NCBI RefSeq assembly: GCF_053078305.1
Contig: NZ_CP166879.1
DNA length: 64,000 bases
Reading direction: 5' to 3' (one strand)
Numbering within the stretch: the stretch's first letter is position 1; each line of letters begins with the position of its first letter. A model generated the notes under the pieces. It had not been told where the DNA came from, did no database searches, and was given only the letters and a program-made list of their open reading frames with translations. Positions 9,810 to 64,000 of this stretch are shown piece by piece. The position numbers and the translations under genes are program-made.

Positions 9810-9912
9810 TGCCTGATGCACTACGTTTATCCGGTCTACATGATCCCTGCAATATCTTGAATTTGCGTGATTATGTAGGCCGGATAAGGCGTTCACGCCG
9901 CATCCGGCATGA
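9810..9912. repeat. REP/BIME cluster (two REP units)
   Basis: gcctgatgcactacgtttatccggtctaca and tgtaggccggataaggcgttcacgccgcatccggcatg between rnr and rlmB. Confidence 0.75.
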
Positions 9913-9966
9913 ACAAAGCGCATTTTGTCAGCAATCTAACCCTCTTCTGTTTGAAGAGGGCAATGA

Positions 9967-12408
9967 TCACTCTGCCACTTTTTTCTTCGCCGCACGCTTC
10001 GCTTTGGTCGCTGCAGCTATTTTCTGCGTTTTCGCCGATGGCTTTTTCGCTTTTCTCGCGTCTTTCTTCGCTGCTTTCGGCTTCGTTTTTTTCTCACCGC
10101 GGAAGGCGCTGTCTGGCTCAAAGTTTACCTTTTTACCGACCTGACGACGCTTGCCGCCTTTTTTACCTGTATCGCCTTTTTTCGCTTTCTCGCGCGCCGT
10201 TTTACCGACGTTGCGCGGTGCGCGTTCGCTGGAGATCAGGCTAAAGTCGATTTTGCGCTCGTCCATATTAACCGCTTCGACGCGAACTTCCACGCGATCG
10301 CCCAGACGATAAGTCTGGCCGCTGGATTCACCCATCAGGCGTTGCCCTACCTGGTCAAAGCGATAGTAGTCATTGTCCAGCGAAGAGACATGGACCAGAC
10401 CATCAATGAATAAGTCGTCCAGACGGACAAAGAATCCAAAGCCAGTGACGCTGGAAATTACGCCTTTAAAGACGTTACCTACCTGGTCGAGCATAAAGTC
10501 ACACTTCAGCCAGTCAGCCACATCGCGCGTTGCTTCGTCGGCACGACGTTCTGCCATCGAACAGTGCTGACCCAGTTGCAGCATCTCTTCCATCGAATAA
10601 TGGTAGCCGCCGGTTTCAGTGGTGTTACCCTGATGCCCCTGCTCTTTCGCCAGCAGATATTTAATGGCGCGGTGCAGCGTCAGGTCTGGATAACGACGAA
10701 TCGGCGAAGTAAAGTGCGCATAGGACTGCAATGCCAGGCCAAAGTGACCACGGTTTTCTGGATCGTAAATCGCCTGTTTCATCGAGCGCAGCAGCATGGT
10801 TTGCAGCATTTCTGCATCAGGACGATCGGCAACCGACTCCAGCAGCTCCGCGTAGTCACGCGGTTCCGGCTTGTTACCGCCCGGCAGTTCCAGCCCCAGC
10901 TCCGCCAGCACTGAACGGAAAGAGGTAATCGCTTCGGTGCTCGGCTTGTCGTGAATACGGAACAGTGCCGGTTCTTTCGCTTTCTCAACGAAACGCGCCG
11001 CCGAGATATTCGCCAGAATCATGCACTCTTCAATTAACTTGTGCGCGTCGTTACGCTGAGTCTGTTCGATACGCTCAATACGGCGTTCAGCGTTGAAAAT
11101 GAACTTCGCTTCTTCGCTCTCAAATGAGATCCCACCGCGTTCTTCACGGGCTTTATCCAGCACTTTATAGAGGTTATGCAACTCCTCGAGATGCTTAACC
11201 AGCGGGGCGTACTGCTCGCACAGATCCTGATCGCCCTGCAGAATATGCCAGACTTTGGTGTAGGTCAGACGCGCGTGAGAGCTCATCACCGCTTCGTAGA
11301 ATTTGTAGCCAGTCAGGCGGCCTTTCGACGAAACCGTCATCTCGCACACCATACACAGGCGGTCTACCTGCGGATTGAGCGAGCACAGACCGTTAGAGAG
11401 CACTTCCGGCAGCATCGGGATAACCTGCGAAGGGAAGTACACCGACGTACCACGGTTACGCGCTTCTCTGTCCAGCGGCGTTGGCGGACGCACATAGTAG
11501 CTGACGTCGGCAATCGCGACCCATAAACGCCAGCCGCCGCCGCGTTTTTTCTCGCAGTAAACTGCATCGTCAAAGTCACGGGCGTCTTCGCCATCAATGG
11601 TGACCAGCGGTAAATCGCGCAGATCAACACGGCCCGCTTTTGCTTCTTCCGGCACTTCTTCTTTCAGCCCGGCAACCTGTTGCTCAACAGCCTGCGGCCA
11701 GATGTACGGAATTTCATGGGTACGCAGAGCGATATCAACCGCCATGCCGGTGCCCATATTATCGCCAAGGACTTCGACGATTTTACCCACCGCTTTGGTG
11801 CGGCGAGTCGGACGCTGAGTCAGTTCGACTACGACCACAAAGCCCATCCGCGCGCCCATGATCTGATCGGGCGGGATTAAGATATCGAAGCTCAGACGGC
11901 TGTCGTCAGGAACCACAAAGCCGACGCCCGCTTCGGTAAAGTAGCGACCAACAATCTGGCTGGTTTTTGGCACCAGTACGCGGACAATACGCGCTTCACG
12001 ACGACCTTTACGGTCAGCACCCAGCGGCTGAGCCAGCACCTGATCGCCATGAATGCAGGTTTTCATCTGCTCGCTGGAGAGATACAAATCATCTTTACGC
12101 CCTTCAACCCGCAGAAAGCCGTAGCCATCACGGTGGCCAATAACGGTACCTTTCACCAGGTCGAGGCGTTCCGGCAGCGCATAGCACTGACGACGAGTAA
12201 AGACCAGTTGACCATCGCGCTCCATCGCGCGCAGGCGGCGACGCAGGCCTTCAAGCTGCTCTTCGCCTTCAATGTGCAGTTCTACCGCCAGCTCATCACG
12301 GCTGGCCGGTTTTTCACGTTTGGTTAAATGTTCGAGGATAAATTCCCGACTAGGGATGGGATTCGCGTATTTTTCAGCTTCGCGTTCCTGGAAAGGATCT
12401 TGTGACAT
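9967..12408 (-). CDS. rnr: ribonuclease R (3'-5' exoribonuclease) with lysine-rich C-terminal tail
   Basis: ORF 9967..12450; start placed at ATG 12408 ([10 protein letters not shown]...) for 813 aa; RNB-family nuclease with S1 domain and basic tail. Confidence 0.93.
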
Positions 12409-12446
12409 CTCGGTTCCTCCGTTGTCATCTCTGATGAAGATTTTCG

Positions 12447-12872
12447 TCACTCCACCAGCAATAATTTATAAAGCGGTTGATTCTCTTCAACCAAATCGGC
12501 AAGCGTGTAGTTATCCAGTTCCGTAAGAAAACTTTGCACGGCCTTAGAAAGCGCCTGTTTCAACCGACAGGCAGGTGTAATGTGGCAAAACTCACTGCTG
12601 CAATTCACCAGCGATAAGGGCTCCAGCTCGCGCACCACATCACCAATACGTATCGCACTCGCCGGTTTACCCAGGCGAATGCCGCCATTTTTTCCACGAA
12701 CAGCAGTCACGTAGCCGGCACGACTAAGTTGATTGATTATTTTGACCATATGATTACGGGAGACGCCGTAGACGTCAGTCACTTCAGAAATACTGGTCAT
12801 CCGCCCTTCTGGCAATGACGCCATGTAGATCAGCGCACGTAATCCGTAATCAGTGAAACTCGTTAACTGCAC
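12447..12872 (-). CDS. nsrR: nitric-oxide-sensing Rrf2-family repressor NsrR
   Basis: ORF 141 aa; wHTH with three C-terminal cysteines (Fe-S cluster ligands). Confidence 0.92.
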
Positions 12873-13076
12873 ATCAACCTCAAAAGGGAAATCGGGAAAA
12901 AATACATTTATATTGATGATAAACCAGCCACAAGCTGTGTCGCTAATTTATTTCAGTTCGGGGAAGGAAAAAAGCGAGGATTTAACACTGTGTCGGATAG
13001 CGTAATGGCTTAACCGACACAGCAATGTATCACACTGTTAGCCCGGCAGGCAAAATATCTGCCAGGCGTACCAGAA

Positions 13077-14378
<1,302 letters not shown>

Positions 14379-14478
14379 TCAAAATCACCGTTTGCTTAAA
14401 AATGGATTCTACCATCGCTTTTTCAGAGTTACAGCACTTTTTGCACTCAAAAATGACCTCGATCAGTCTGTTTTTTGT

Positions 14479-14757: not shown

Positions 14758-15762
14758 TTAACGCGTTGCGGAAGTCGGCGTCTTCATGTAGCGGAAGAAA
14801 TCGCTATCCGGGCTCATGACCATCACGTCCTGATTGCCAGAGAAGCTGTTCTCATAAGCACGCAGGCTACGGATGAATGCGTAGAAGTCCGGATCTTTAC
14901 TGAATGCATCAGCAAACAGTTTGGCTGCTTCGGCATCGCCTTCACCACGCATGATACGGCCCTGACGCTCAGCTTCTGCCAGCGTTCTGGTCACTTCATA
15001 GTCGGCAGTCGCGCGCAGTTTTTCCGCTTCTTCCTGACCTTGTGAACGGTGACGACGCGCTACCGCTTCACGCTCGGCGCGCATACGGTTGTAGATCGCT
15101 TCAGACACTTCGGTCGGCAGGTTGATCTGCTTGATACGCACATCGACAACTTCAATACCCAGCGCCGCCATACTGTTCGGGTTGATGACCGGAACTTTGC
15201 CCTTCGTCTCAGCCGTTACGCGCTCTGCCGCTTCGGCAATGGCGTTATCTGCCGCCGGGGTAGTAACTTCATCTTCTGTACCCGCAGAACCGGAGTTCAG
15301 CGCGTCACGTACTTCGAGGGTCAGACGACCACGGGAATCAGTGACGATATCTTTCACGTCCAGGCGACCAATTTCAGAACGCAGACGGTCAGAGAACTTA
15401 CGTTTCAACAGCACTTCCGCTTGCGAAATGTCGCCACCACCCGTTGCCAGGTAGTAACGGCTGAAATCGCTGATGCGCCATTTGATGTAAGAGTCGACGA
15501 TCAGGTCTTTCTTCTCTTTGGTCACAAAGCGGTCGGCCTGGTTGTCCATGGTCTGAATACGTGCGTCGAGCATTTTCACCGTTTCAATGAACGGTATCTT
15601 GAAATGCAGACCCGGCTCATAAACCAGAGGTTTGTTGTCATCGTCACGCAGTACCTTACCAAAACGCAGCGTAATACCGCGCTCACCTTCTTTGACGACA
15701 AAGACAGACATGTAAAGCACTACCAGCACGATGATAATAATCGCGATAACTGACTTACGCAT
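14758..15762 (-). CDS. hflC: FtsH protease modulator HflC (SPFH/band-7)
   Basis: ORF 334 aa; N-terminal TM anchor plus SPFH domain. Confidence 0.95.
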   Translation of the reverse strand: MRKSVIAIIIIVLVVLYMSVFVVKEGERGITLRFGKVLRDDDNKPLVYEPGLHFKIPFIETVKMLDARIQTMDNQADRFVTKEKKDLIVDSYIKWRISDFSRYYLATGGGDISQAEVLLKRKFSDRLRSEIGRLDVKDIVTDSRGRLTLEVRDALNSGSAGTEDEVTTPAADNAIAEAAERVTAETKGKVPVINPNSMAALGIEVVDVRIKQINLPTEVSEAIYNRMRAEREAVARRHRSQGQEEAEKLRATADYEVTRTLAEAERQGRIMRGEGDAEAAKLFADAFSKDPDFYAFIRSLRAYENSFSGNQDVMVMSPDSDFFRYMKTPTSATR

Positions 15763-15764
15763 CG

Positions 15765-17024
15765 TTATTCCCCCTGACGCTGGTAGTCGTTACGCTGCGC
15801 GTTGGCGCGGCGTTGGTCCATAATATCGCCCTGACTGGTGGACGACGTGTTGCTTGCTCCACTGGTTGTGGAGGAAGAGGCTGGCGGCAGACGCAGCAGA
15901 TTGCTGGCACCGTTATCGCTCTTCGCTGCAGGGGCGTTACCACCTTTCAGCATCTGGTCTAACGGCAGAACCATCAGGTTGCCACCTTTATCGTTAACCA
16001 GCACTTTGCGGGTGTTGCCCAACACTTTTTCCATCGTCTCGATATACAGACGCTCGCGAGTAATTTCCGGCGCAGCTTTATATTCCGGCAGAAGTTTAGC
16101 AAAGCGCGCCACTTCACCCTGGGCTTCCAGGATGGTCTGGGCCTTGTACGCACGCGCCTCTTCGAGGATACGTTGCGCCTGACCGTTCGCACGCGGCTGA
16201 ACTTCGTTGGTATACGCTTCTGCTTCACGAATGTATTGCTGTTCGTTTTCACGCGCGGCAATCGCATCGTCAAACGCCGCTTTTACTTCTTCCGGCGGAC
16301 GAGCAGCCTGGAAGTTGACGTCCAGCAGCGTGATACCCATGTCATACGGACGAATCGTCTCTTCCAGTTCGCGCTGAGTATCGCTACGAATCACGGTACG
16401 ACCTTCCGTCAGAATGCGGTCCATGGTGTATTTACCGATAACTCCACGCAGGGCGCTGTCGGTAGCCTGACGCAGGCTGTCATCCGGGCTGGTCACGCTA
16501 TACAGATATTTTTCCGGATTGGTGACGCGGTACTGCACGTTCATCTCAACGCGCACTACGTTCTCGTCCGACGTCAGCATCACACCAGAAGCGGCCAGTT
16601 CACGCACGGCTTCCACGTTCACCGGTTTGACTTCGTCGATAAACGTCGGTTTCCAGTTCAGACCCGGCTCAACCAGATGGCTGAATTTACCAAAGCGTGT
16701 TACCACGCCGCGTTCGGCTTCTTTAATGGTATAGAAACCACTGGCCGCCCAGATAATGACAATCGCTGCCGCTGCGATGGTAACGACACGACCGCCAAGC
16801 TGCGGGCGCGGGCCTTGCGATGAACTGCCACCGCCAGATCCGGTGCCTTTACCGCCGCCCAGACCACCGAGCTTTTTGCTCAGTTTGCGGAAGATATCAT
16901 CTAAATCAGGTGGCCCTTGATCGCGACCGCCTTTGTTTCCATTTCCCTCAGAGTTGCCGCCAGGTTTGCTGCTTCCCCACGGGTCGCGGTCTTGTCCGTT
17001 ATTACCGGGCTGATTCCACGCCAT
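15765..17024 (-). CDS. hflK: FtsH protease modulator HflK (SPFH/band-7)
   Basis: ORF 419 aa; Gly-rich N-terminus, SPFH domain; 2-nt gap to hflC. Confidence 0.95.
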   Translation of the reverse strand: MAWNQPGNNGQDRDPWGSSKPGGNSEGNGNKGGRDQGPPDLDDIFRKLSKKLGGLGGGKGTGSGGGSSSQGPRPQLGGRVVTIAAAAIVIIWAASGFYTIKEAERGVVTRFGKFSHLVEPGLNWKPTFIDEVKPVNVEAVRELAASGVMLTSDENVVRVEMNVQYRVTNPEKYLYSVTSPDDSLRQATDSALRGVIGKYTMDRILTEGRTVIRSDTQRELEETIRPYDMGITLLDVNFQAARPPEEVKAAFDDAIAARENEQQYIREAEAYTNEVQPRANGQAQRILEEARAYKAQTILEAQGEVARFAKLLPEYKAAPEITRERLYIETMEKVLGNTRKVLVNDKGGNLMVLPLDQMLKGGNAPAAKSDNGASNLLRLPPASSSTTSGASNTSSTSQGDIMDQRRANAQRNDYQRQGE

Positions 17025-17109
17025 GTTTGTGCTCCATATTTGTTATGCGGTGATCCCTGTTGTCTTTCGACGCCAGAGGATATGACTCCACGCTTCAGAC
17101 GCTACGCCG

Positions 17110-18390
17110 TTAGATCAGGTAATCGATCAACGCCGGTTCTTGTTTACAGAGGCGACGCCAGTCAACGATCGGCATACGAACTTGCAGACTTACGCTGCCG
17201 TCCTCCTCCATCCACTCTTTTTCTATTGCCTGAAGCTGATAAAAACGACTTCTCAGACGCCCTTCCTGCGGTGGCAGACGCAATGTATGCTGCGCCACCT
17301 CGCCGGAAAGCCGCTCCGTCAAAGCCTGAAAAAGCTGTGGTATCCCCGCTCCGGTCTGTGCGGAAAGCCAGACACGGATCGGTTTGTTCTCTTCGTCCCG
17401 ATCAATACGCGGTTCGAAATCTTCCAGCATATCGATCTTGTTCATCACCAGCAGGGTTGGGATCTCGTGAGCGTCGATCTCTTCAAGAACCGTATTCACC
17501 GCTTCGATGTTTTCTTGTACACGCACATCCGCCGCATCAATGACATGCAGCAGTAATGTGGCTTGCCGCGTCTCTTGTAACGTGGCTTTAAATGCTGCCA
17601 CCAGATCGTGCGGCAGGTGGCGAATAAACCCTACGGTATCTGCCAACACGGTTTCACCGACATCTGCAACGTCAATACGCCGCAACGTCGGGTCGAGGGT
17701 GGCAAACAACTGGTCTGCCGCGTAGACCCGCGCTTCGGTGATGCGATTGAAAAGGGTAGATTTACCGGCGTTGGTATATCCCACCAGCGAAACAGTAGGA
17801 ACGTCGGCTTTGATACGCGATTGCCGCCCCTGCTCACGCTGCTTTTCAACTCTTTCCAGGCGCGACTGTATCTGCACGATGCGATTACGCAACAAACGAC
17901 GGTCGGTTTCGAGCTGGGTTTCACCCGGACCACGCAAACCTATCCCGCCTTTCTGTCTTTCAAGGTGGGTCCAGCCACGCACCAGGCGCGTAGCCAGATG
18001 GCGCAGCTGCGCCAGCTCAACCTGCAACTTACCCTCATGGGTACGCGCACGTTGGGCGAAAATATCTAAAATAAGGCCGGTGCGGTCGATAACACGACAC
18101 TCGCACAAACGCTCCAGGTTACGCTCTTGCGCCGGGCTCAGGGCATGGTCAAAAAGAACGACCGAAGCACCCGTCGCTTTGACAGCTTCCGCAATTTCAA
18201 CTGCTTTACCTTCACCTACAAAATACTTTGGGTGCGGCGCTTTACGGCTACCGGTAATCACCTGCAATGCTTCGACACCGGCGGAAGAGACCAGAGATTC
18301 AAACTCCTGGAGGTCTTCCATATCTTTGTCTTGCGTAAAATAGATGTGTACCAGTACCGCCTGCTCACCAGCATCATAACGGTCAAACAA
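17110..18390 (-). CDS. hflX: ribosome-associated GTPase HflX
   Basis: ORF 426 aa; G-domain motifs GYTNAGKST and DTVG. Confidence 0.95.
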
Positions 18391-19811: not shown

Positions 19812-21651
19812 CTTTCAGGGCTTTTATCGCCGGATGTAAATCAACAGATTGTAACAGACCACCCGGCGGCGTTTTCACAAGTTGCGGACATAACCGTTCC
19901 ACGTCCGCCAGCAGGGTTATGGCCTGTGCCATTGACCACTGCGCATGTTCGCTCATCAGATTTCGTGCAATCCACTGCGCAATATTGCCAGGTTCGAATA
20001 CGGACTGCTTCGCCAGGTAGCCTATCAGTTCAGGAATCAAGATTTGTAAATTTTGTTGGCGTAAGGGTAAAGGCACGGCCCTGATGGTCACATGCTGTGC
20101 ATCTGACTGGAAATCAATACCCAATTCCGCCAGGGCAGACTGCGCTTTTTCTAATGCCGATTTTTCTTCGCCAGAAACTTTTAGCCGCAACGGAATCAGC
20201 AACGGCTGGGCGCAAACGGGCGCTTCACCCGGCGTCAGTTGTACCTGACGCAGCCAACGTTCTGCCACTGGCAAGGCTAAAAGTGAAATGTTGCCGTCGC
20301 GCTCCAGCAACGCACAGTCGGAATGGACGATAGTCAGTACCCGACCAAAACTCTGACTGTTCGCCGCAAGTGCAGGTTCCTGCGGTTCCGGCGCTTTTGG
20401 TTTTTGCATCGGCGCGGGCGTTTGCAAAAGCTGGCGATACACTTCACCTTGCTGTTTCTGGTAACCTGGCTGCGCATTCGGCCAGGGGGCAGCCGGACGA
20501 CTGCCTGATGCTGGCGCAGGAGTGTAGCGCGGAGCTACTGGCTCACGAACTGCCGGTTCAGCAAAGTGATTGCGCCCCGCCGCCACGCGGTTTTCCGGAA
20601 TGGCACGCGGTGCAGGTTGTGGTTCATCGTCCAGCGGTAGCGGCGTTTCCAGTTGCTGTTGTAGCACGCTCAGCACGCCCTGATAGATAAAATCATGCAC
20701 CAGACGCGACTGATGGAAACGCACTTCGTGTTTGGCGGGGTGTACGTTGACGTCCACCTGATGCGGGTCGATCTCCAGATACAGCACAAATGCCGGTTGT
20801 TGATCGGCCCCCAGTTTGTCTTCACAGGCCTGGCGGATCGCATGATTGATCAGGCGATCGCGCATCATGCGACCATTCACGTAGCAATACTGAATTTCTG
20901 CCAGGGCGGGCGTGGTGTGATTCGGATCGGCCACCCAGCCGCGCAGGGTGAGATCGCCGTGTTGCCATTCAATCGCCAGCGCTTGTTCGAGAAAAGCGGT
21001 GCCACAAATCGCGCCTAAGCGCCGTTCTTTTTGCCCGCCTTCCGGCACTGCGCGGTACTGACGCACAATTTTACCGTTATGCGACAGGTTGATCGTGACG
21101 TCGAAACGCGCCAGCGCAATGCGGCGGATGATTTCATCGATATGGTTAAATTCGGTTTTCTCGGTGCGCAGGAATTTGCGCCGCGCCGGGGTGTTGTAGA
21201 ACAGATCCAGCACCTCCAGCGTCGTTCCCACCGGATGCGCCGCCGGTTTAACCGTCACGTCCATATCGCGCCCTTCGGCATAGGCCTGCCAGGCTTCCTG
21301 CTGTTCTGCGGTGCGTGAAGTGAGCGTCAGGCGGGAAACCGAACTGATACTCGCCAGCGCCTCACCGCGAAAGCCAAGGCTGATAATGGCTTCGAGATCG
21401 TCCAGAGAGGCGATTTTACTGGTGGCATGACGAGCCAGCGCCAGCGCCAGCTCATCTTTTTTGATACCGCAGCCGTTATCACGAATGCGGATAAGTTTCG
21501 CCCCACCGCGTTCGATATCAATATCGATACGCGTCGCACCTGCATCGAGGCTGTTTTCCACCAGTTCTTTGACTACCGACGCAGGTCGCTCGACCACCTC
21601 ACCTGCGGCAATCTGGTTCGCCAGTTGTGGCGGTAAGACCTGAATTGGCAT
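19804..21651 (-). CDS. mutL: DNA mismatch repair protein MutL
   Basis: ORF 19804..21654; GHKL ATPase N-domain; start at second ATG (21651) for 615 aa. Confidence 0.95.
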
Positions 21652-55875: not shown

Positions 55876-55951
55876 GCCCGGATAGCTCAGTCGGTAGAGC
55901 AGGGGATTGAAAATCCCCGTGTCGGTGGTTCGATTCCGCCTCCGGGCACCA
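55876..55951 (+). tRNA. pheU: tRNA-Phe (GAA) with variant T-stem
   Basis: GCCCGGATAGCTCAGTCGGTAGAGCAGGGGATTGAAAATCCCCGTGTCGGTGGTTCGATTCCGCCTCCGGGCACCA; identical to recalled E. coli tRNA-Phe except two compensatory base-pair changes in the T-stem (49-65 and 50-64). Confidence 0.95.
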
Positions 55952-56146: not shown

Positions 56147-57217
56147 TCAAGATTTATTCCCCCCTTTGCAAATCTTGCTCACTGTGCGCTCATCTGTATA
56201 CAAACTCAGGGCATCTTCCAGTGTCTGCGCTGCAGACTCCATACAGACATCAACATACCCCATGGTCGTTGTAAGACTCCTGTGTCCCAGTATGGATTTG
56301 ACCAGATGTAAATTACGTTCAGGATATTTCATCAGTCTGGTTGCCAGCGTATGTCTGAAACGATGTGGTGAAACAGGAAAACCACATTCTCGCGAAAGTC
56401 GCCGGAAAAATGAACGTACGGTCTGATGCGCCCGAACGGGACAGTACTGATATCTGTCGGCAGAGATCGGCTCACTGAAACGACAGACGTCAAAAAGATA
56501 GTCATCATCACCTGCCCCGCACTGACGGGCCCGCTCCAGCAGTTTTTCCATCGATACCTTCAGGGGAGCCACCAGAGGAACGCCCCATTCCCTGTGAGTT
56601 TTACTTCCCTCCAGCTTAAGATCAATTATGCTTTCATCCGGACAGACATCCCTCACACGGATATGCTTCAGTTGATTAAAGCGCATTCCGGTATAACGCA
56701 GAACATCCAGAACTGTCAGCCAGTACCAGGCAGGGTATATAGCATTGCGTCGACGACTATTCACCATGTTCTGCTCTTCCGCTTCTGCAAACCTCTGCAC
56801 AACCAGGTAAACCCTGAGCATCTGATTGTCACTCAGTGTCTTTTTCTTTTTTTCAGTACTCGCAACTGATGCTTCCACCAACGGGTTTTCTGTCTGAGGC
56901 AGCAGTTTCATCTTGATCCCGAATCCCATAATTGCCCGCAAGTGGGCCACCTTGTTATTCCAGGTCACCTCCCTGCGCTTCTGCTCTTTCAGGACATAAC
57001 GCCGGTATCGCTGAACATCACGGACAGTCACCTCCCCCGGCAAAATATCACCGATAAATTCCCTGAATACCCTGACAACTTTGCAGTAGCTCCACTCTGT
57101 ATCCGGCCGAAGATTCTTTGAAAAAAAGTACTCTTCCAGCAGTTGTTCCCAGGTGATTTTTGTGACGGAATCGTCATTCTGCATTATATATTCCCCTTGT
57201 TTACTGTGCTCCCGCAC
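56147..57217 (-). CDS. tyrosine-type site-specific recombinase (island integrase)
   Basis: ORF 356 aa; C-terminal catalytic residues visible (HRFRHT ... LGHRS ... MGYV with catalytic Tyr); transcribed toward the tRNA-Phe attachment site; possible alternative start at ATG 57184. Confidence 0.85.
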   Translation of the reverse strand: MREHSKQGEYIMQNDDSVTKITWEQLLEEYFFSKNLRPDTEWSYCKVVRVFREFIGDILPGEVTVRDVQRYRRYVLKEQKRREVTWNNKVAHLRAIMGFGIKMKLLPQTENPLVEASVASTEKKKKTLSDNQMLRVYLVVQRFAEAEEQNMVNSRRRNAIYPAWYWLTVLDVLRYTGMRFNQLKHIRVRDVCPDESIIDLKLEGSKTHREWGVPLVAPLKVSMEKLLERARQCGAGDDDYLFDVCRFSEPISADRYQYCPVRAHQTVRSFFRRLSRECGFPVSPHRFRHTLATRLMKYPERNLHLVKSILGHRSLTTTMGYVDVCMESAAQTLEDALSLYTDERTVSKICKGGNKS

Positions 57218-57251
57218 TCTCCGGTCAAATTCTGCACATCATCGCCTTTAC

Positions 57252-58739
57252 TCACCCGAAAACAATAAGCGGGCTGTCTCCGGGAACCGTAATATTCCCG
57301 TACAGAAACCTGCCCTTAACCAGATATCCCGAAACCATTTTGTAACGTCCGGAATGTTCTGCGTCACTATAAAGACGGGCCTGAAAAAAACGCTCTCCTG
57401 AACGTACCTTATGGATACCTGCCCGTTCAAAGAGCGACTGAACATAACGACGATCCTGCCCGGAACCACTCTCCTTCAGAAAACGATAAAAAATCCCCGG
57501 GGCACACAGAAAAACATATCCGGAAACAACATGAACATTTGAATCAACGCTGTTAACCGAAAGTGAACCCTCCCTCAGCCCCTCTTTTAACCATCTGATA
57601 AATTCACTCTCTACCCTGCTATCCTCTGTCAGGGAAAACTCTGCCGTTTTTTCCACTGTTTCCGGGATACGGTTTCCCTGATTTTCTGTTACACATCCGC
57701 TCTCTTCCGGTAACTCAATACCGCTTTCTTTATCCGGCGGCACGCCTGACGCTATCTGCCCTCCCTCATCCGACAAATCAGCAGCAGAAAACAGCGTAAG
57801 GAGCATTCCGGTATCAGCATCAGTTTCGTTCCCCTCATCCACCTCCTGTTCCGCTGTCCGGCCCTCATTTTCGGCATCCTCCACTGGCGACTGTACAACC
57901 GGCAACGGCTGAATGACGCTTTCTGCTGAAATTGCTGCTGACTGCAGCAGTACCGGAACAACCTCAGCCACCGGAACTTCGGCCACATCTCCTGCAGCGA
58001 GGGGACTCACGACTTCCTCCATAGCTTCCTGTAATACTGTACGTATCAGTGCCATTTCAGGATGCTGATGCCAGACTGCTCCGGCAAGATTCTGTAATGC
58101 CCCCGGGACAGTGGCAAGCCAGGCTCCCGCCTCTCCGGGCAGCAGTTGTCCCGCCATCAGGGCTGCCAGTTGCCGTCCCTCCGTTCCCTGGCAGGGCATC
58201 TTCCTGAACCGGAACCGGTATACGCCCTCAGGTACAGATATCCCCGGCTGCCAGCATCTGCCGTCGGCCTGTTCGCCTTCCAGTTCCGCCAGCAACGGCA
58301 GGTGATAAAACAGAGCCGACCAGAACACCACCATGTTCCACACACTCCCCTGCGCGGCCTGCTCTTCTGCTGTCGCTCCCGGTGGAAACATTCTGCCTCT
58401 GGCCAGCCGGACAGCATACGTCGTGAACTGCAGGGTCAGGTCACCAAAACCACCGGTGTAACCCCAGCGACCTTCTGCTGTGGCCGGCAGATTCTGACTG
58501 ACAGACAACAACTGATGCACAGGATCAAGACAAAGGCGCTGATACATATCCACCGGCATGGAACTGTTTTCCCATAACTGTTTCAGACACCTTTTCCTGA
58601 ACGGTGTGGATACCAGTACATCAGCCGGCAATGGTGTAAAATACCCCTCCGGCACCGTTTCCCCGGGAATATCCGTCCGGACATCAGAACATTCTGTCTT
58701 CACAGGAAATAACCTTTTCAGGCGTTCAAGCATGCCCAT
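57252..58739 (-). CDS. hypothetical 495-aa protein, translationally coupled partner of the SF1 helicase
   Basis: ORF 57252..58739; start overlaps helicase stop by 14 nt; N-domain and C-domain separated by an acidic low-complexity linker (about 57,630-57,900); no Walker A, HD or HNH motif recognisable by eye. Confidence 0.6.
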   Translation of the reverse strand: MGMLERLKRLFPVKTECSDVRTDIPGETVPEGYFTPLPADVLVSTPFRKRCLKQLWENSSMPVDMYQRLCLDPVHQLLSVSQNLPATAEGRWGYTGGFGDLTLQFTTYAVRLARGRMFPPGATAEEQAAQGSVWNMVVFWSALFYHLPLLAELEGEQADGRCWQPGISVPEGVYRFRFRKMPCQGTEGRQLAALMAGQLLPGEAGAWLATVPGALQNLAGAVWHQHPEMALIRTVLQEAMEEVVSPLAAGDVAEVPVAEVVPVLLQSAAISAESVIQPLPVVQSPVEDAENEGRTAEQEVDEGNETDADTGMLLTLFSAADLSDEGGQIASGVPPDKESGIELPEESGCVTENQGNRIPETVEKTAEFSLTEDSRVESEFIRWLKEGLREGSLSVNSVDSNVHVVSGYVFLCAPGIFYRFLKESGSGQDRRYVQSLFERAGIHKVRSGERFFQARLYSDAEHSGRYKMVSGYLVKGRFLYGNITVPGDSPLIVFG

Positions 58740-60276
58740 TCTCCTGAACCCGACCTGATGTGTCGTACCCGGTCCCCCGCAGACCTTCAGTTTTCTGCTG
58801 TTCTTCTGCCAGTTGGTGCATCAGGTCATTCAGTACCAGCGTCCTGAGGGCCCGGGTGACAGCCACATATAACAGACAGGTTTCATCATGACGCTCGGCC
58901 TCCGTCATCAGCGGAACCGTGATATCCTGGAAATCCTCATCCAGCATTACAACCGGCCACTCCAGCCCCTTGCTCCGGTGTGCCGTTGACACCGTGATAT
59001 CTGCATCCTGCTCATTCGTTACCGTATACTGCCGGAGAAGTTCCAGTTTTTTCGGTAACGGAAAACACAACTCCAGAAGCCGAAGGGACTGATTCATCTC
59101 CACATCCTTCGTGGATTTTGCAATATATTTATATTCTTCAAAATTCCTGTAGTCCCGGCGCAGCCTGTCTGAATGCATCCGTTCCGGCATATCAACCTGG
59201 AACCAGTAGAGATCCTCAAGTTCCCCGGTCCTGTAACCTTCGATTCCCCCCACCCAGTAAACCTTTTGCCCTTTCATTGCCGCCATCAGCGCAGTACCAA
59301 TCACACCCGCGACAGTACGACTGAGTACCGTGTAATGCCCCTGCAGATGTTCACGCGCATGGCATTTCAGCAATACCTCATCATCACCACCACAACCTTT
59401 CACCTCTCGTGTTTCACCTTCACGCTGCAGAAGCAGATTTGCCATACGAGCCACCGCCGGACCAAAACGGAAACTCTGTGTCAGCCACAACCGGTCCGCA
59501 TTCTTCAGTGCAGGATGGGAAAGCGCATTATTCGCACCCCGAAAGCGGTAAATCTGTTGATAACAATCTCCAACAAGGACCACCCGACACTTCTGCCCCA
59601 GAACCAGAGCAGTGGTCACCGGATTCGCATCCTGCGCCTCATCAAACAGGATGGTGTCCCATCGGTGAGACAGGTCTGCACCGGACAACTGGAAGAGTTT
59701 CAGATAAGTATCGTGCGTCACCGGGAACGTCCCCCCGGGGTTGCTCATTTCGTTCCAGAGCAACTGCACCGCCCGAAGCGCATCTGCTGGCGGAACACCC
59801 CGCATCTCATCCTTATCCGGCAGGTGATGCAGGCCCGGTACCGCATCAGCAGAACAGATAAAATGATTCAGCCCCGTCCCTGCCACCCGTGCCAGAGCCC
59901 AGTATCGTGTATTCAGCTTTCTCGCCACATCAGTAATACGTAATCCCGGAACCAGCCGATGACGGTAGTGTCTTCCAACCCGGGCATACGCCAGCTGATG
60001 TGACGTTCTGCATTCCACGTTAAAGGGAAATTTACGCTCTGCCTCATCACGTATTGCCCGGTTATAGGCAAGATAGAGCATACGGCTGTCCGGACTGGCC
60101 CGGGCAAACTGCACCAGCGTACTCGTCTTCCCTGTGCCGGAAAACGCATTCACAACCAGTTGCTGCCCCTGCCAGTTAATAATGGCGTACTGTTCATCTG
60201 TGGGATTAAAAGACATGTATTCTCTTCTCCGGAAAAACATTTCCGTAATCTGATGCATCAGGGGTATGCCCACCAC
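58726..60276 (-). CDS. superfamily-1 UvrD/PcrA-like DNA helicase
   Basis: ORF 516 aa; Walker A SGTGKT (about 60,124-60,141), motif II FDEAQD, motif IV QSFRF, motif V/VI TAHRSKGLEWPVV; true start may be an internal ATG (MSFNPTDEQ..., 60216). Confidence 0.85.
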   Translation of the reverse strand: MVGIPLMHQITEMFFRRREYMSFNPTDEQYAIINWQGQQLVVNAFSGTGKTSTLVQFARASPDSRMLYLAYNRAIRDEAERKFPFNVECRTSHQLAYARVGRHYRHRLVPGLRITDVARKLNTRYWALARVAGTGLNHFICSADAVPGLHHLPDKDEMRGVPPADALRAVQLLWNEMSNPGGTFPVTHDTYLKLFQLSGADLSHRWDTILFDEAQDANPVTTALVLGQKCRVVLVGDCYQQIYRFRGANNALSHPALKNADRLWLTQSFRFGPAVARMANLLLQREGETREVKGCGGDDEVLLKCHAREHLQGHYTVLSRTVAGVIGTALMAAMKGQKVYWVGGIEGYRTGELEDLYWFQVDMPERMHSDRLRRDYRNFEEYKYIAKSTKDVEMNQSLRLLELCFPLPKKLELLRQYTVTNEQDADITVSTAHRSKGLEWPVVMLDEDFQDITVPLMTEAERHDETCLLYVAVTRALRTLVLNDLMHQLAEEQQKTEGLRGTGYDTSGRVQENGHA

Positions 60277-60447: not shown

Positions 60448-62124
60448 ATGTCCGAAGTAAAAAAACACGTTTCTTATTCATTAACAGTTGCAGCTATGCT
60501 GTCAGCCGCCATCGTCTGTCAGACAGCACATGCTGATATCAACACACCGAACATCACCGGAGAAAAAAACAATACAACAACACGATTCTCCGGAAATATT
60601 TACGGCAGTGAAAATACTGTCACATCAGAGTCAAACAGTCTGGTTGTGGGTAACAGTAATTCCGTGGAGGGAGGGTATAACAACATTGTTATTGGTAATT
60701 CCTCCACGGTCAAAGCTTCCGGTTTGATCAGAAAAGTGGGCGAAGATATTGTGCTGGATGGTTACAGCGTCAGCCTCGGTAATGCCACCAGAATTAACGG
60801 TGATTCATCTGTTGCCATAGGTCTGACATCGTCCGTAACCGGGAACGACTCCGTGGCACTGGGCAGTCATTCCAGTGCTAACGGAAACAATATCGTATCC
60901 GTCGGCTCTGACACACTGAAACGCCGCATCACAAATCTGGCACAGGGGAAAGATGACCATGATGCGGTAAATCTGATGCAGATGACCAGTGCTGTTAACC
61001 GGGAAGCTGGAGAAAGAATAAAATCAACAAACAACCTGCAGAATCAGCTTAATACCCTCTCTGGTCAGGTCATAACTGAAACCAGGGCCCGAACAGAAGG
61101 TGATGCAGCAGCGCTGGCTGCAGCCAGAGCCCACAGCGATGAAAACGACAAAAGAACACTGGTCAGTGCGAATACCTATGCTGACCAGAAAGAAACCGCC
61201 ATCAATAACCGTACTGACGGATTACTGACGACCGAACGCCAGGCACGCACCGCAGGCGATACTGCAACTCTGGCTGCTGCCAGAACGCACAGCGATGAAA
61301 ACAACAAAAGAACACTGATCAGTGCGAATACCTATGCTGACCAGAAAGAAACCGCCATCAATAACCGTACTGACGGATTACTGGCTACAGAACGCCAGGC
61401 ACGCACCGCAGGCGATACTGCAACTCTGGCTGCTGCCAGAACGCACAGCGATGAAAACAACAAAAGAACACTGGTCAGTGCGAATACTTATGCTGACCAG
61501 AAAGAAACCGACATCAATAACCGTACTGACGGATTACTGGCTACAGAACGCCAGGCACGCACCGCAGGCGATACTGCAACTCTGGCTGCTGCCAGAACGC
61601 ACAGCGATGAAAACAACAAAAGAACACTGATCAGTGCGAATACCTATGCTGACCAGAAAGAAACCGCCATCAATAACCGTACTGACGGATTACTGACGAC
61701 CGAACGCCAGGCACGCATCGCAGGTGATGCCGCAACTCTGGCAACAGCAGCGGCATACAGTGACGCCGGGGATTCACTGACACTGAAACAGGCAACAGCC
61801 TACAGCGATATCAGTACCCGCCGGGCACTGTCAGAGGCCAATCGTTATACCGACAACAAATTCAGAAACCTGAGCAATAAAATTGAACGGGCAGAAAAAA
61901 GACTTAATGCAGGCATCGCCGGAGTGACAGCAATATCCTCCATCCCCTATGTGGCTGAAAATTCTTTTTCATACGGGATCGGCGTGGGTAACTATCAGAA
62001 CGCTAATGCTGTGGCCGCAGGCATTCAGTATAAAACATCACGTAATACCAATATACGCCTCAACATCTCCTGGGACTCATCTCATAACACCGCGATTGGT
62101 GCAGGGGTTGCCGGCGGCTGGTAA
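60448..62124 (+). CDS. YadA-like trimeric autotransporter adhesin (Eib/Saa-like architecture)
   Basis: ORF 558 aa; signal peptide, head with NSxxxG/SxxxG YadA-head repeats, neck, repeat-containing coiled-coil stalk, C-terminal YadA-type beta-barrel anchor ending ...AIGAGVAGGW. Confidence 0.85.
   Translation: MSEVKKHVSYSLTVAAMLSAAIVCQTAHADINTPNITGEKNNTTTRFSGNIYGSENTVTSESNSLVVGNSNSVEGGYNNIVIGNSSTVKASGLIRKVGEDIVLDGYSVSLGNATRINGDSSVAIGLTSSVTGNDSVALGSHSSANGNNIVSVGSDTLKRRITNLAQGKDDHDAVNLMQMTSAVNREAGERIKSTNNLQNQLNTLSGQVITETRARTEGDAAALAAARAHSDENDKRTLVSANTYADQKETAINNRTDGLLTTERQARTAGDTATLAAARTHSDENNKRTLISANTYADQKETAINNRTDGLLATERQARTAGDTATLAAARTHSDENNKRTLVSANTYADQKETDINNRTDGLLATERQARTAGDTATLAAARTHSDENNKRTLISANTYADQKETAINNRTDGLLTTERQARIAGDAATLATAAAYSDAGDSLTLKQATAYSDISTRRALSEANRYTDNKFRNLSNKIERAEKRLNAGIAGVTAISSIPYVAENSFSYGIGVGNYQNANAVAAGIQYKTSRNTNIRLNISWDSSHNTAIGAGVAGGW
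61087..61710 (+). repeat. four near-identical tandem 156-bp (52-aa) repeats within the adhesin stalk, plus a degenerate fifth copy
   Basis: Units begin at 61087, 61243, 61399, 61555 (each starting gca cgc acc gca ggc gat = ARTAGD); partial degenerate unit from 61711. Confidence 0.9.
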
Positions 62125-62296: not shown

Positions 62297-62363
62297 GCCC
62301 GTTAACATTTAACTTCGTGGGCTGACGTTGCCACAAGCACCGTATTTCCCTGATTTATTCTGT

Positions 62364-62852
62364 TTATTTTATTGTGGATAATGATGCCAATGGCATGAAT
62401 AAAGTTCTTCCGGACTCCGGGAACGCCATAAAGCCATAATGTTTGTAAAATGCGACTGCCGTGTCATCTTTTGCATCAACAATAAGCGCATATGCTGCAA
62501 TTTCAGATGTGTATGCACGATATAGCGCATCAGCTAAAAGTGCTCCCCCAAGCCCCGTTCCTTTTGATGACAGACTTACTGCCAGTCGTCCCATACGAAT
62601 AGCCGGAATAGTGGGATATCGCGGAAGCTTTTTTCTCAAATGCTCAGGTAAGTCAGTTAATAATATACTGGCCGCTGATAACGTATAGTATCCGATGATA
62701 TGATGATCGTTATCTACAGCGACAAAACAGGCCGCGATGCGTCGTCGAATATCCTGTGTGACATGCTCTTTTATGTAACGGTCCAGAGCATCAGAGCCAC
62801 ATAAAAATGAGGTTCTGTCATATGTGCTGTTAAATGGTGTCAGTTGAAACAT
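62364..62852 (-). CDS. GNAT-family acetyltransferase toxin (TacT/AtaT/KacT-like)
   Basis: ORF 162 aa; acetyl-CoA-binding region with Gly-rich loop (TGLGGALLADA) and conserved Tyr; sits 5 nt downstream of a DUF1778 gene. Confidence 0.82.
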   Translation of the reverse strand: MFQLTPFNSTYDRTSFLCGSDALDRYIKEHVTQDIRRRIAACFVAVDNDHHIIGYYTLSAASILLTDLPEHLRKKLPRYPTIPAIRMGRLAVSLSSKGTGLGGALLADALYRAYTSEIAAYALIVDAKDDTAVAFYKHYGFMAFPESGRTLFMPLASLSTIK

Positions 62853-62857
62853 TATAT

Positions 62858-63139
62858 TTATTTTGTGTACAGCATATTATTACGGCGTTTAAAGGCCCGT
62901 TTAAGCGCATCATTCGGCTCTGTTGGTGACAGTAATGCCTGAGCAAAAATTTCCTGATCTGTCCGGGACAGTCGGATTATATCGGTTTGTTCGATAGCGC
63001 GTTGGGCCGCATCCTGAACGGCAGCAATGATAAAATCGGTCATAGTGCGCCCCTGGATTTCTGCAGCGCGCTTCAGCATGGCATGTAGTTCTGTGCTGAT
63101 CCTTGCTTCCAGTCGGGCAGTTTGTGTTGCAGATGGCAT
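62858..63139 (-). CDS. DUF1778 (RHH-like) antitoxin, TacA-like
   Basis: ORF 93 aa; N-terminal segment RLEARISTELHAMLKRAAEIQGRTMTDFI typical of DUF1778 antitoxins; upstream of the GNAT toxin. Confidence 0.8.
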   Translation of the reverse strand: MPSATQTARLEARISTELHAMLKRAAEIQGRTMTDFIIAAVQDAAQRAIEQTDIIRLSRTDQEIFAQALLSPTEPNDALKRAFKRRNNMLYTK

Positions 63140-63374
63140 GATTTGTACCTCCTGAATACACTGTACGGCAAATTGCCGTATTGTGCAAATTACACTCTGA
63201 CACCGGGACGGCAGACAGACATTCTGCCTGAAAAGAAAAATCAGATTCAGACAAAACTATCCGGGGGATGTTAACGCCACGATCTTTGACCATTGCATAC
63301 AGATAAAAGCTCAGATTATTTACCAGCAGTGACATCCGGAGTACACCGGGATTTTATCTGTGAGTGAACATACC

Positions 63375-63405
63375 CGGGCAAAAAAATCCCCCGAATTCAG
63401 GGGGG
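63375..63405 (-). terminator. rho-independent terminator downstream of the BON-domain gene
   Basis: Minus strand: ccccc-tgaattc-ggggg followed by atttttttg. Confidence 0.65.
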
Positions 63406-63556
63406 TGTCAAAGAGGAATTATGTATATTGGTTATTATAATGAGCACGCCTCCGGTATTCCGCGACGAATGTTCACGTGGTGGCATGAACGGCCCGGAAA
63501 CGTGCTCTTCTGATTTTTAACGTAAATTTACACTAAAGGCAACTCTGATACTGCCT

Positions 63557-64000
63557 TCACCGGATATAGGAGAAGGCCGTCGTGACCCGCTTCACTCCGC
63601 TCACCCTACTGGCAACATCTGCTGCCGCTCGCCCTTCCTGCTCTGTAACCAGGCCCAGTAAAAAGACTTCGCTGTTTTCTGTCACCACCTTGACACTGGA
63701 TGATTTGACACGGGCACTTGTGAGTAACTGAGAACGAATTTTTGTCGTAAGCCAGGCATCACCTGCCATTATGACCGGACTGACGGGTGTCCCCTGCCGG
63801 ATTTCATTATAGACCTCCTGAACACCATCGACACCGAGTGCTATCTGACGGGCACGGGCAGATAATTCACGGCCCGGAGACTGACCGATCAGCAGCACGC
63901 GTCCCTGATATGCAATCTCACTGATACGTGCTTCTTTTCTGATTTGTTCATCTTTTGAAAGTGCACTGCTGACCCTCAGCTCCAGCACTTCATCATCCAC
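63557..64000 (-). CDS. DolP/YraP-like dual-BON-domain lipoprotein paralog, C-terminal 147 aa (5' end outside window)
   Basis: Translation aligns by eye along its whole visible length with recalled E. coli DolP (YraP), e.g. LEVRVNSALSKDEQIKKEARI / GQSP..ELSARA / VKRVTTAF blocks, at roughly 60-70% identity. Confidence 0.8.
   Translation of the reverse strand: MDDEVLELRVSSALSKDEQIRKEARISEIAYQGRVLLIGQSPGRELSARARQIALGVDGVQEVYNEIRQGTPVSPVIMAGDAWLTTKIRSQLLTSARVKSSSVKVVTENSEVFLLGLVTEQEGRAAADVASRVSGVKRVTTAFSYIR

Follow-up and report, generated by a model that had tools for sequence, protein, structure and literature searches.

The window analyzed in this study, a stretch of 64,000 nucleotides from contig NZ_CP166879.1 (RefSeq assembly GCF_053078305.1), ends within a second, strongly diverged dolP gene that is located on a tRNA-Phe island. 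This gene, here referred to as dolP', probably encodes a functional, horizontally acquired accessory lipoprotein of the DolP family, which works broadly like core DolP and whose interface with lipids or partners is possibly altered. Among the core envelope genes, dolP is regarded as single-copy. This view, which was also part of the original prediction for this locus, agrees with the genomes: 5424 of the 5426 complete E. coli genomes possess a dolP gene of ~70% DNA identity, whereas the island type occurred in 26 (~0.5%), always on the chromosome and in up to three copies per genome. Every genome carrying dolP' also contained core dolP. According to the prediction, the gene was a diverged DolP paralog, which was carried on the island close to an autotransporter adhesin and had its own terminator; our analyses support this identification. 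The gene dolP' is a member of a known family in an unusual, mobile location, and it is correctly auto-annotated, as RefSeq already names the copies with 98–99% identity dolP. A literature search, which covered a minority of the subscription journals, retrieved no description of an island-borne dolP/yraP copy, and this included the papers on the LAA and SE-PAI islands of LEE-negative STEC.

In the window, dolP' is represented by its 3' 444 nt, a minus-strand open reading frame at positions 63,557–64,000 with 147 codons plus the stop codon (63,557–63,559) and no internal stops. The assignment is based on the list of open reading frames, the translation, Pfam, NCBIfam, the PDB, and RefSeq. Pfam detected two BON domains (PF04972; E = 2e-29) in this fragment. 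The 147 amino acids alone reached 222.7 bits with the NCBIfam DolP equivalog model NF008247 (cutoff 184) and 57 bits with the OsmY model (cutoff 174), so that the predicted second copy of the DolP/YraP family at this position is real.

Eight complete E. coli genomes matched positions 62,300–64,000 over the full length with 98–99% identity, and each of them contained an intact dolP gene of 191 amino acids as annotated by RefSeq. In the best full-length match (L001; 99% identical), whose island is located at pheV, dolP' has a length of 576 nt and codes for 191 amino acids. Members of the DolP family carry a Sec signal peptide with an L-x-G-C lipobox and, for sorting to the outer membrane, a residue other than Asp at +2. 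The L001 product starts with MRLLYSAVVLISALLLQGCVAA, which is the DolP lipobox followed by Val at position +2, and the lipobox LLQGC-V was present in L001 and in all 81–98% identical variants of dolP'. The fragment in the window differs from the L001 protein at one residue, with G87 in the window for D87 in L001. With regard to the check that had been suggested for the full gene, namely for the lipobox and both BON domains, the near-identical copies contain MRLLYSAVVLISALLLQGC with Val at +2 in an intact gene of 191 amino acids; the N-terminus of the window's own copy lies beyond position 64,000, together with the remaining 5' 132 nt of the gene (the first 44 codons for the signal peptide, lipobox, and linker). 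A pseudogene or the lack of a lipobox had been named as findings that would speak against the prediction, and neither was observed in the near-identical full-length copies, all of which are intact 191-aa genes.

Compared to K-12 DolP, for which the gene in the lpoA-yraN-diaA-dolP locus was taken as reference, the L001 protein shows 75% identity and 86% similarity in a gapless alignment. The DNA identity is 68%, which fits the initial by-eye estimate of 60–70%. The full-length product matched the solved structure of DolP (YraP; PDB 7A2D) with E = 2.8e-77. An AlphaFold model of DolP' (pLDDT 82) comprised two alpha-beta-beta-alpha-beta BON units with a long BON2 helix at residues 119–138, and a Foldseek search with this model retrieved 7A2D as the best match, followed by BonA, OsmY, and Neisseria DolP.

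Mutation of W127 or L137 abolishes DolP function, T130, K131, R133, S134, and Q135 are modelled lipid contacts, and G120 and S123 are modelled as membrane-inserting (Bryant et al. 2020, PMC7806268). DolP' keeps W127, T130, K131, R133, S134, Q135, and L137, and both W127 and L137 are retained within the extended first helix of BON2 (predicted at 119–138). The N-terminal half of this lipid helix is rewritten across the island clade (G118S, L119P/A, G120V/A/L, E121I/T/R, A122M/I, S123A, N124G, and T126A; also I128L), and the rewritten stretch includes the modelled membrane-inserting residues G120 and S123. As a consequence of these differences, the mean hydrophobicity of residues 119–127 is 0.54 in DolP' versus 0.04 in the core protein, and the net charge of the helix changes from 0 to +1. 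In BON1, all or nearly all members of the island clade share the substitutions T49V, V52L, N71S, V72E, and T73I. V52 and V72 are Bpa crosslink positions in DolP, and V52 crosslinked to both BamA and OmpA (Ranava et al. 2021, PMC8081527). Altogether, 16 island-fixed substitutions affect positions that are conserved in at least 95% of 107 chromosomal DolPs. The changes in the lipid helix and at the BON1 crosslink positions suggest that the activity of DolP' may differ from that of core DolP. We also observed a replacement of lysine by arginine throughout DolP' relative to the chromosomal DolPs (K65R, K78R, K95R, K168R, and K191R); the number of lysines decreases from 12 to 7 and that of arginines increases from 9 to 15, despite the lower GC3 of dolP'.

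One could speculate from the island-fixed changes at the crosslink positions and from the more hydrophobic, more positively charged helix that DolP' is a modulator or decoy, which competes with core DolP for BamA, OmpA, or septal lipid and alters envelope traits such as susceptibility to phages, contact-dependent toxins, or antibiotics instead of supporting assembly. The defence-type genes in its surroundings (tacAT, a KwaB-like gene, and hsdS beside the 81% variant) would be in line with such a role. However, this scenario is pure inference, most of the changes in DolP' are conservative (K to R, and swaps among V, I, and L), and the fold and the critical residues are kept. We therefore regard it as highly improbable.

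The third-codon-position identity between dolP' and K-12 dolP ranged from 0.2 to 0.65 in every 60-nt segment across the whole gene, and synonymous sites (dS) were saturated. These values rule out a recent duplication of, or gene conversion from, the host dolP. When 5.8 billion proteins were searched, the island-type sequences formed a group of their own, which included members labelled as E. coli with 96–99% identity and of variants with 87%, 84%, and 81% identity. Chromosomal DolPs of Enterobacteriaceae were 68–76% identical to the island type, yet 85–90% identical to the K-12 protein. Since dolP' is placed outside the chromosomal Enterobacteriaceae DolPs and its synonymous sites are saturated, it is a xenolog and not a recent duplicate. 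Its position, which is behind a DUF465 gene on the tRNA-Phe island and not in the lpoA-yraN-diaA-dolP locus, likewise identifies dolP' as a xenolog or paralog rather than an ortholog of core dolP. Its GC3 is 0.49, compared to 0.58 for core dolP. No donor genus was found in the search of 5.8 billion proteins, which returned nothing between the island clade (≥81%) and the Enterobacteriaceae DolPs (≤76%), and the sequences on either side of the 87% variant (L012) had zero matches in complete E. coli genomes.

Pairwise dN/dS among the island copies was 0.06–0.17 with dS values up to ~0.5, and all 37 full-gene matches in complete genomes were annotated as intact dolP. Hence, dolP' is under purifying selection, and the intact copies together with the low dN/dS rule out that the dolP' family represents a pseudogene. 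These data also bear on the possibility that dolP' is a hitch-hiking passenger from the chromosome of another bacterium, which brings no benefit to the host and is heading toward decay. Such a fate could be expected for a gene that is as rare as dolP' (26 of 5426 genomes), that is potentially redundant because core dolP is always there, and that is located in a rearrangement-prone, IS-rich region, where two genomes also carry a truncated copy (a 3' fragment) and four have suffered deletions. The signature of purifying selection disfavors this explanation, however, as do the retention of the lipobox and key residues across the 81–99% variants and the recurrence of the gene with its short leader in several unrelated contexts. 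We thus consider it quite unlikely that dolP' is a mere passenger, and the functional accessory lipoprotein remains the preferred interpretation.

The island in the window is inserted at a tRNA-Phe gene (GAA; 55,876–55,951, plus strand) in the pheU position beside dsbD and yjdC/dicD, which was identified by ARAGORN, the Rfam tRNA model, and its flanking genes and serves as the integration site. It is followed on the minus strand by genes for a tyrosine integrase (56,147–57,217), a TraI_2 relaxase-like protein (57,252–58,739), and a UvrD-type helicase (58,726–60,276), all assigned by Pfam, and these genes confirm the predicted island location of dolP'. This backbone (56,147–60,276) is shared with >99% identity by 23 genomes, in which it is located at either pheU or pheV. 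Next to it, on the plus strand, lies a gene for a YadA-type trimeric autotransporter adhesin of 558 amino acids (TAA1; 60,448–62,124), for which Pfam recognized the head, the stalk, and the YadA anchor. The TAA1 gene contains four nearly identical stalk repeats of 156 nt (52 amino acids) at positions 61,114–61,742. Other genomes contain TAA1 alleles with lengths of 1521 and 1677 nt, a difference of exactly one repeat unit, which suggests that the length of the adhesin varies through the number of repeats. Two minus-strand genes separate dolP' from TAA1, and the original statement that the adhesin is two genes away was therefore accurate. These are tacT (62,364–62,852), which codes for a TacT-like GNAT acetyltransferase toxin (Pfam GNAT), and the antitoxin gene tacA (62,858–63,139; DUF1778/TacA1, Pfam TacA1 E = 4e-27, and RefSeq annotation of relatives), which lies downstream of the dolP' terminator. 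Compared to the islands L003, L004, and L015, the tacAT pair of the window fills the position that is held elsewhere by the gene of a second YadA-like adhesin. A tacAT pair with ~94% identity is also present on many E. coli plasmids. Past the part equivalent to the window, the L001 island codes for PilI, a KwaB-like (Kiwa defence) protein, an N6 methylase, a DUF1281 protein, ArdC, and a second integrase (15,549–17,615 and 20,086–21,063). No type IV secretion genes were seen in this part of the L001 island, and its gene content suggests a mobilizable or decayed conjugative element.

Downstream of the dolP' stop codon, the minus strand contains a 3' untranslated stretch (63,404–63,556), which was delimited by alignment of the flanks and is conserved in all copies with at least 92% identity. 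A structured RNA or a small ORF in this stretch was ruled out, because it had no match in Rfam and contained only short chance ORFs. The terminator scan detected a terminator-like element at 63,378–63,403 on the minus strand, which consists of the hairpin CCCCTGAATTCGGGGG (63,388–63,403) followed by ATTTTTTTGC. This G+C-rich hairpin of 6 bp with its T-run is located 155 nt downstream of the gene and bears out the prediction that dolP' has its own terminator. It is common to every copy with at least 92% identity (L001, L003, L005, and L006). As dolP' and TAA1 are convergent and separately terminated, dolP' and the adhesin do not form an operon.

On the other side of dolP', a leader of ~70–100 nt is conserved and travels with the gene in the relatives. 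The constant upstream neighbor in the 84–100% variants is the DUF465 (YdcH-like) gene of 75 amino acids (L001, 14,213–14,440; L007, 9603–9830), whose product is 92% identical across the variants and thus more conserved than DolP'. A hairpin is present between the DUF465 gene and dolP' in both the 99% and the 84% variants; the hairpin sequences differ, which suggests separate transcription of the two genes. In L004, the dolP' leader (~14,960–15,000) lacks ~34 nt between two AATTCCGGG repeats and the gene is intact, so that any essential promoter would lie upstream of the AATTCCGGG repeat. The promoter region of dolP' is located outside the window. Core dolP is a member of the sigma-E regulon. 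Scanning the conserved leader of the relatives for the sigma-E consensus (GGAACTT, about 16 nt, TCAAA) revealed a weak, short-spaced candidate site, GGT(A/G)AACTT followed after 14–15 nt by TCCGG, and the K-12 dolP control was likewise weak. A sigma-70 scan of positions 62,300–64,000 returned fewer sites than shuffled sequence.

The carriers of dolP' are mostly Shiga-toxin-type and bovine E. coli with islands at pheU or pheV. A plasmid location of DolP was considered and rejected: at least 10 of 13 matches were in records of ~0.7–5.4 Mb, which are chromosomes or megareplicons filed as plasmids, and two plasmid-sized matches were an Enterobacter dolP (91-kb record) and a Legionella BON protein with 37% identity (106-kb record). 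None of the 13 matches represented island-type dolP' on a true plasmid, and the nearest one (88% identical) was in four pieces in a 1-Mb E. coli record.

The gene order around dolP' falls into several arrangements. In L003 and L004, the int/TraI_2/UvrD backbone at pheU or pheV is followed by TAA1, two small ORFs, the gene of the second YadA-like adhesin (TAA2), dolP', and DUF465; the cargo behind DUF465 varies and comprises subAB with sialic-acid genes or capsule genes. L006 and L014 possess another backbone at pheV, with a P4-type integrase and an AAA protein, and carry TAA2, dolP', and DUF465. L001 is of the window type with TAA1, tacT, tacA, dolP', and DUF465. In L015 (JNEC-KY171; 9912–14,474), the order is TAA1, tacT, tacA, a 270-nt dolP' fragment, TAA2, and a full dolP', and recombination between the two dolP' copies of this layout would give exactly the arrangement found in the window. 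Within a few kb of dolP', L003 (9365–10,847) and L015 (18,697–20,001) carry subAB, which codes for the subtilase cytotoxin, together with a cluster for the utilization of sialic acid (nan). The dolP' module is thus part of a toxin-bearing island at pheU in strains of the LEE-negative STEC type.

Within the clade of copies with at least 92% identity, dolP' was always less than ~1.5 kb away from a YadA-like gene or its remnant, and this applied to two island backbones. In all 19 genomes with TAA2, dolP' was directly adjacent, and L005 and L016 retained adhesin remnants next to it. Based on the adjacency to TAA2 and on these remnants, the linkage to trimeric autotransporters is essentially complete in this clade. 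The picture is different for the older variants. The 84% variant has the int/TraI_2/UvrD backbone and DUF465, and its adhesin slot is occupied by small ORFs in which Pfam recognized no domain. Neither of the other two variants has an adhesin beside it: the 81% variant lies behind an hsdS-like gene, and the 87% variant is located among MFS, HAD, and PAP2 genes. As the adhesin is absent in these cases, the oldest stable neighbor of dolP' is DUF465 rather than an adhesin. Moreover, four genomes (e.g., 2012EL-2448; L013, 11,405–14,882) keep an intact TAA1 and have lost most of TAA2, dolP', and DUF465 beside IS66/ISEc8, and TAA2 relatives occur in at least five genomes without dolP'. The four genomes that keep TAA1 and lack dolP' constitute a natural deletion set for phenotype comparison.

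This distribution is relevant for the proposal that dolP' is a dedicated helper of the neighboring trimeric autotransporters, which acts in their BAM-dependent insertion or buffers the associated stress and moves with them as a module. The essentially complete linkage in the ≥92% clade speaks for such a function, as does the presence of the trio TAA2-dolP'-DUF465 in two unrelated backbones (int/TraI_2/UvrD and P4-type int/AAA). Some trimeric autotransporters are also known to have dedicated helpers, namely SadB for SadA of Salmonella and TpgA for AtaA of Acinetobacter. Furthermore, an association of core DolP with BamA has been described (Ranava et al. 2021, PMC8081527), and the island changes at V52 and V72 could mean a changed partner. 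These arguments are opposed by the convergent and separately terminated genes, by the tacAT pair that holds the adjacent adhesin slot in the window, by the adhesin-free 84% variant in the same backbone, and by the unrelated contexts of the 81% and 87% variants. The four genomes with TAA1 that lost dolP' and the TAA2 relatives without dolP' point in the same direction. In addition, all linked cases are 92–100% identical in their DNA and thus reflect few independent events. A helper module would be expected to occur consistently with its adhesin in independent lineages and to be co-transcribed with it. This was not found here: the genes are convergent, the 81%, 84%, and 87% variants are adhesin-free, and the adjacency is confined to the ≥92% clade. 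The suggestion that the outer-membrane cargo of the island has in dolP' an assembly or stress factor of its own obtained a mixed outcome: the linkage in the ≥92% clade agrees with it, and the convergent transcription units and the adhesin-free older variants do not. A role as dedicated adhesin helper seems unlikely to us, albeit less so than the passenger scenario. A more specific version, in which DolP' is a specialized variant that is co-mobilized with YadA-type genes as TAA2-dolP'-DUF465 and recruits or protects BamA for adhesin assembly by means of its altered BON1 and more hydrophobic helix, is rather doubtful, slightly more so than a mere passenger.

For the favored accessory DolP-family lipoprotein, we infer localization, lipid binding, partners, and physiological benefit from sequence features. 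The gene would be transcribed as its own unit, from the short conserved leader to its own terminator. After export of the precursor of ~191 amino acids, Cys19 would receive the lipid anchor, and sorting would place the protein in the inner leaflet of the outer membrane, with its flexible linker and the two BON domains in the periplasm. Binding of anionic phospholipid and localization to the division site characterize the DolP family. The first BON2 helix (119–138) of DolP' with W127 and L137 may then insert into this type of lipid, and BamA or OmpA in the outer membrane may be among the partners that BON1 contacts. The expected outcome would be envelope support of the DolP type that is additional to, or slightly different from, that provided by core dolP, which these cells retain.

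Our results show that a diverged and selectively maintained dolP is in circulation on pheU/pheV islands among LEE-negative Shiga-toxin-type and bovine strains of E. coli, where subAB is sometimes close by. The ~50 natural substitutions in DolP', which affect the membrane-inserting helix and the BamA/OmpA crosslink positions, can be used for mapping the important surfaces of DolP. If a role specific for the adhesins were true, DolP' would be the first BON-domain, island-encoded, and client-specific accessory factor of the BAM pathway.

Among known systems, DolP' resembles SadB and TpgA in being a small envelope protein that is encoded beside a trimeric autotransporter gene. SadB and TpgA are co-transcribed with their adhesins and are not known to have sequence kinship to BON proteins. 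In contrast, dolP' is convergent with the adhesin gene, and the linkage breaks in the older variants. OsmY (8RJX), BonA of Acinetobacter (6V4V), and Neisseria DolP/GNA2091 (6XMV) share the dual BON fold with DolP' (Foldseek E = 1e-10 to 1e-12) but only 24–29% sequence identity. The W127 determinant, which DolP' keeps, is missing from OsmY (Bryant et al. 2020, PMC7806268). The closest known counterpart is E. coli DolP itself (YraP; 7A2D, NF008247), with which DolP' has in common the length of 191 amino acids, a gapless alignment with 75% identity, the lipobox and +2 residue as seen in the full-length copies, a linker (residues 20–47) that hardly differs, the two BON domains, and the extended BON2 helix with W127 and L137. 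The two proteins differ in their genomic location, which is the tRNA-Phe island for DolP' and the lpoA-yraN-diaA-dolP locus for DolP, and in the 16 fixed changes of DolP' at otherwise conserved positions, to which G120V, S123A, T126A, and I128L of the lipid helix belong as well as T49V, V72E, and N71S of BON1.
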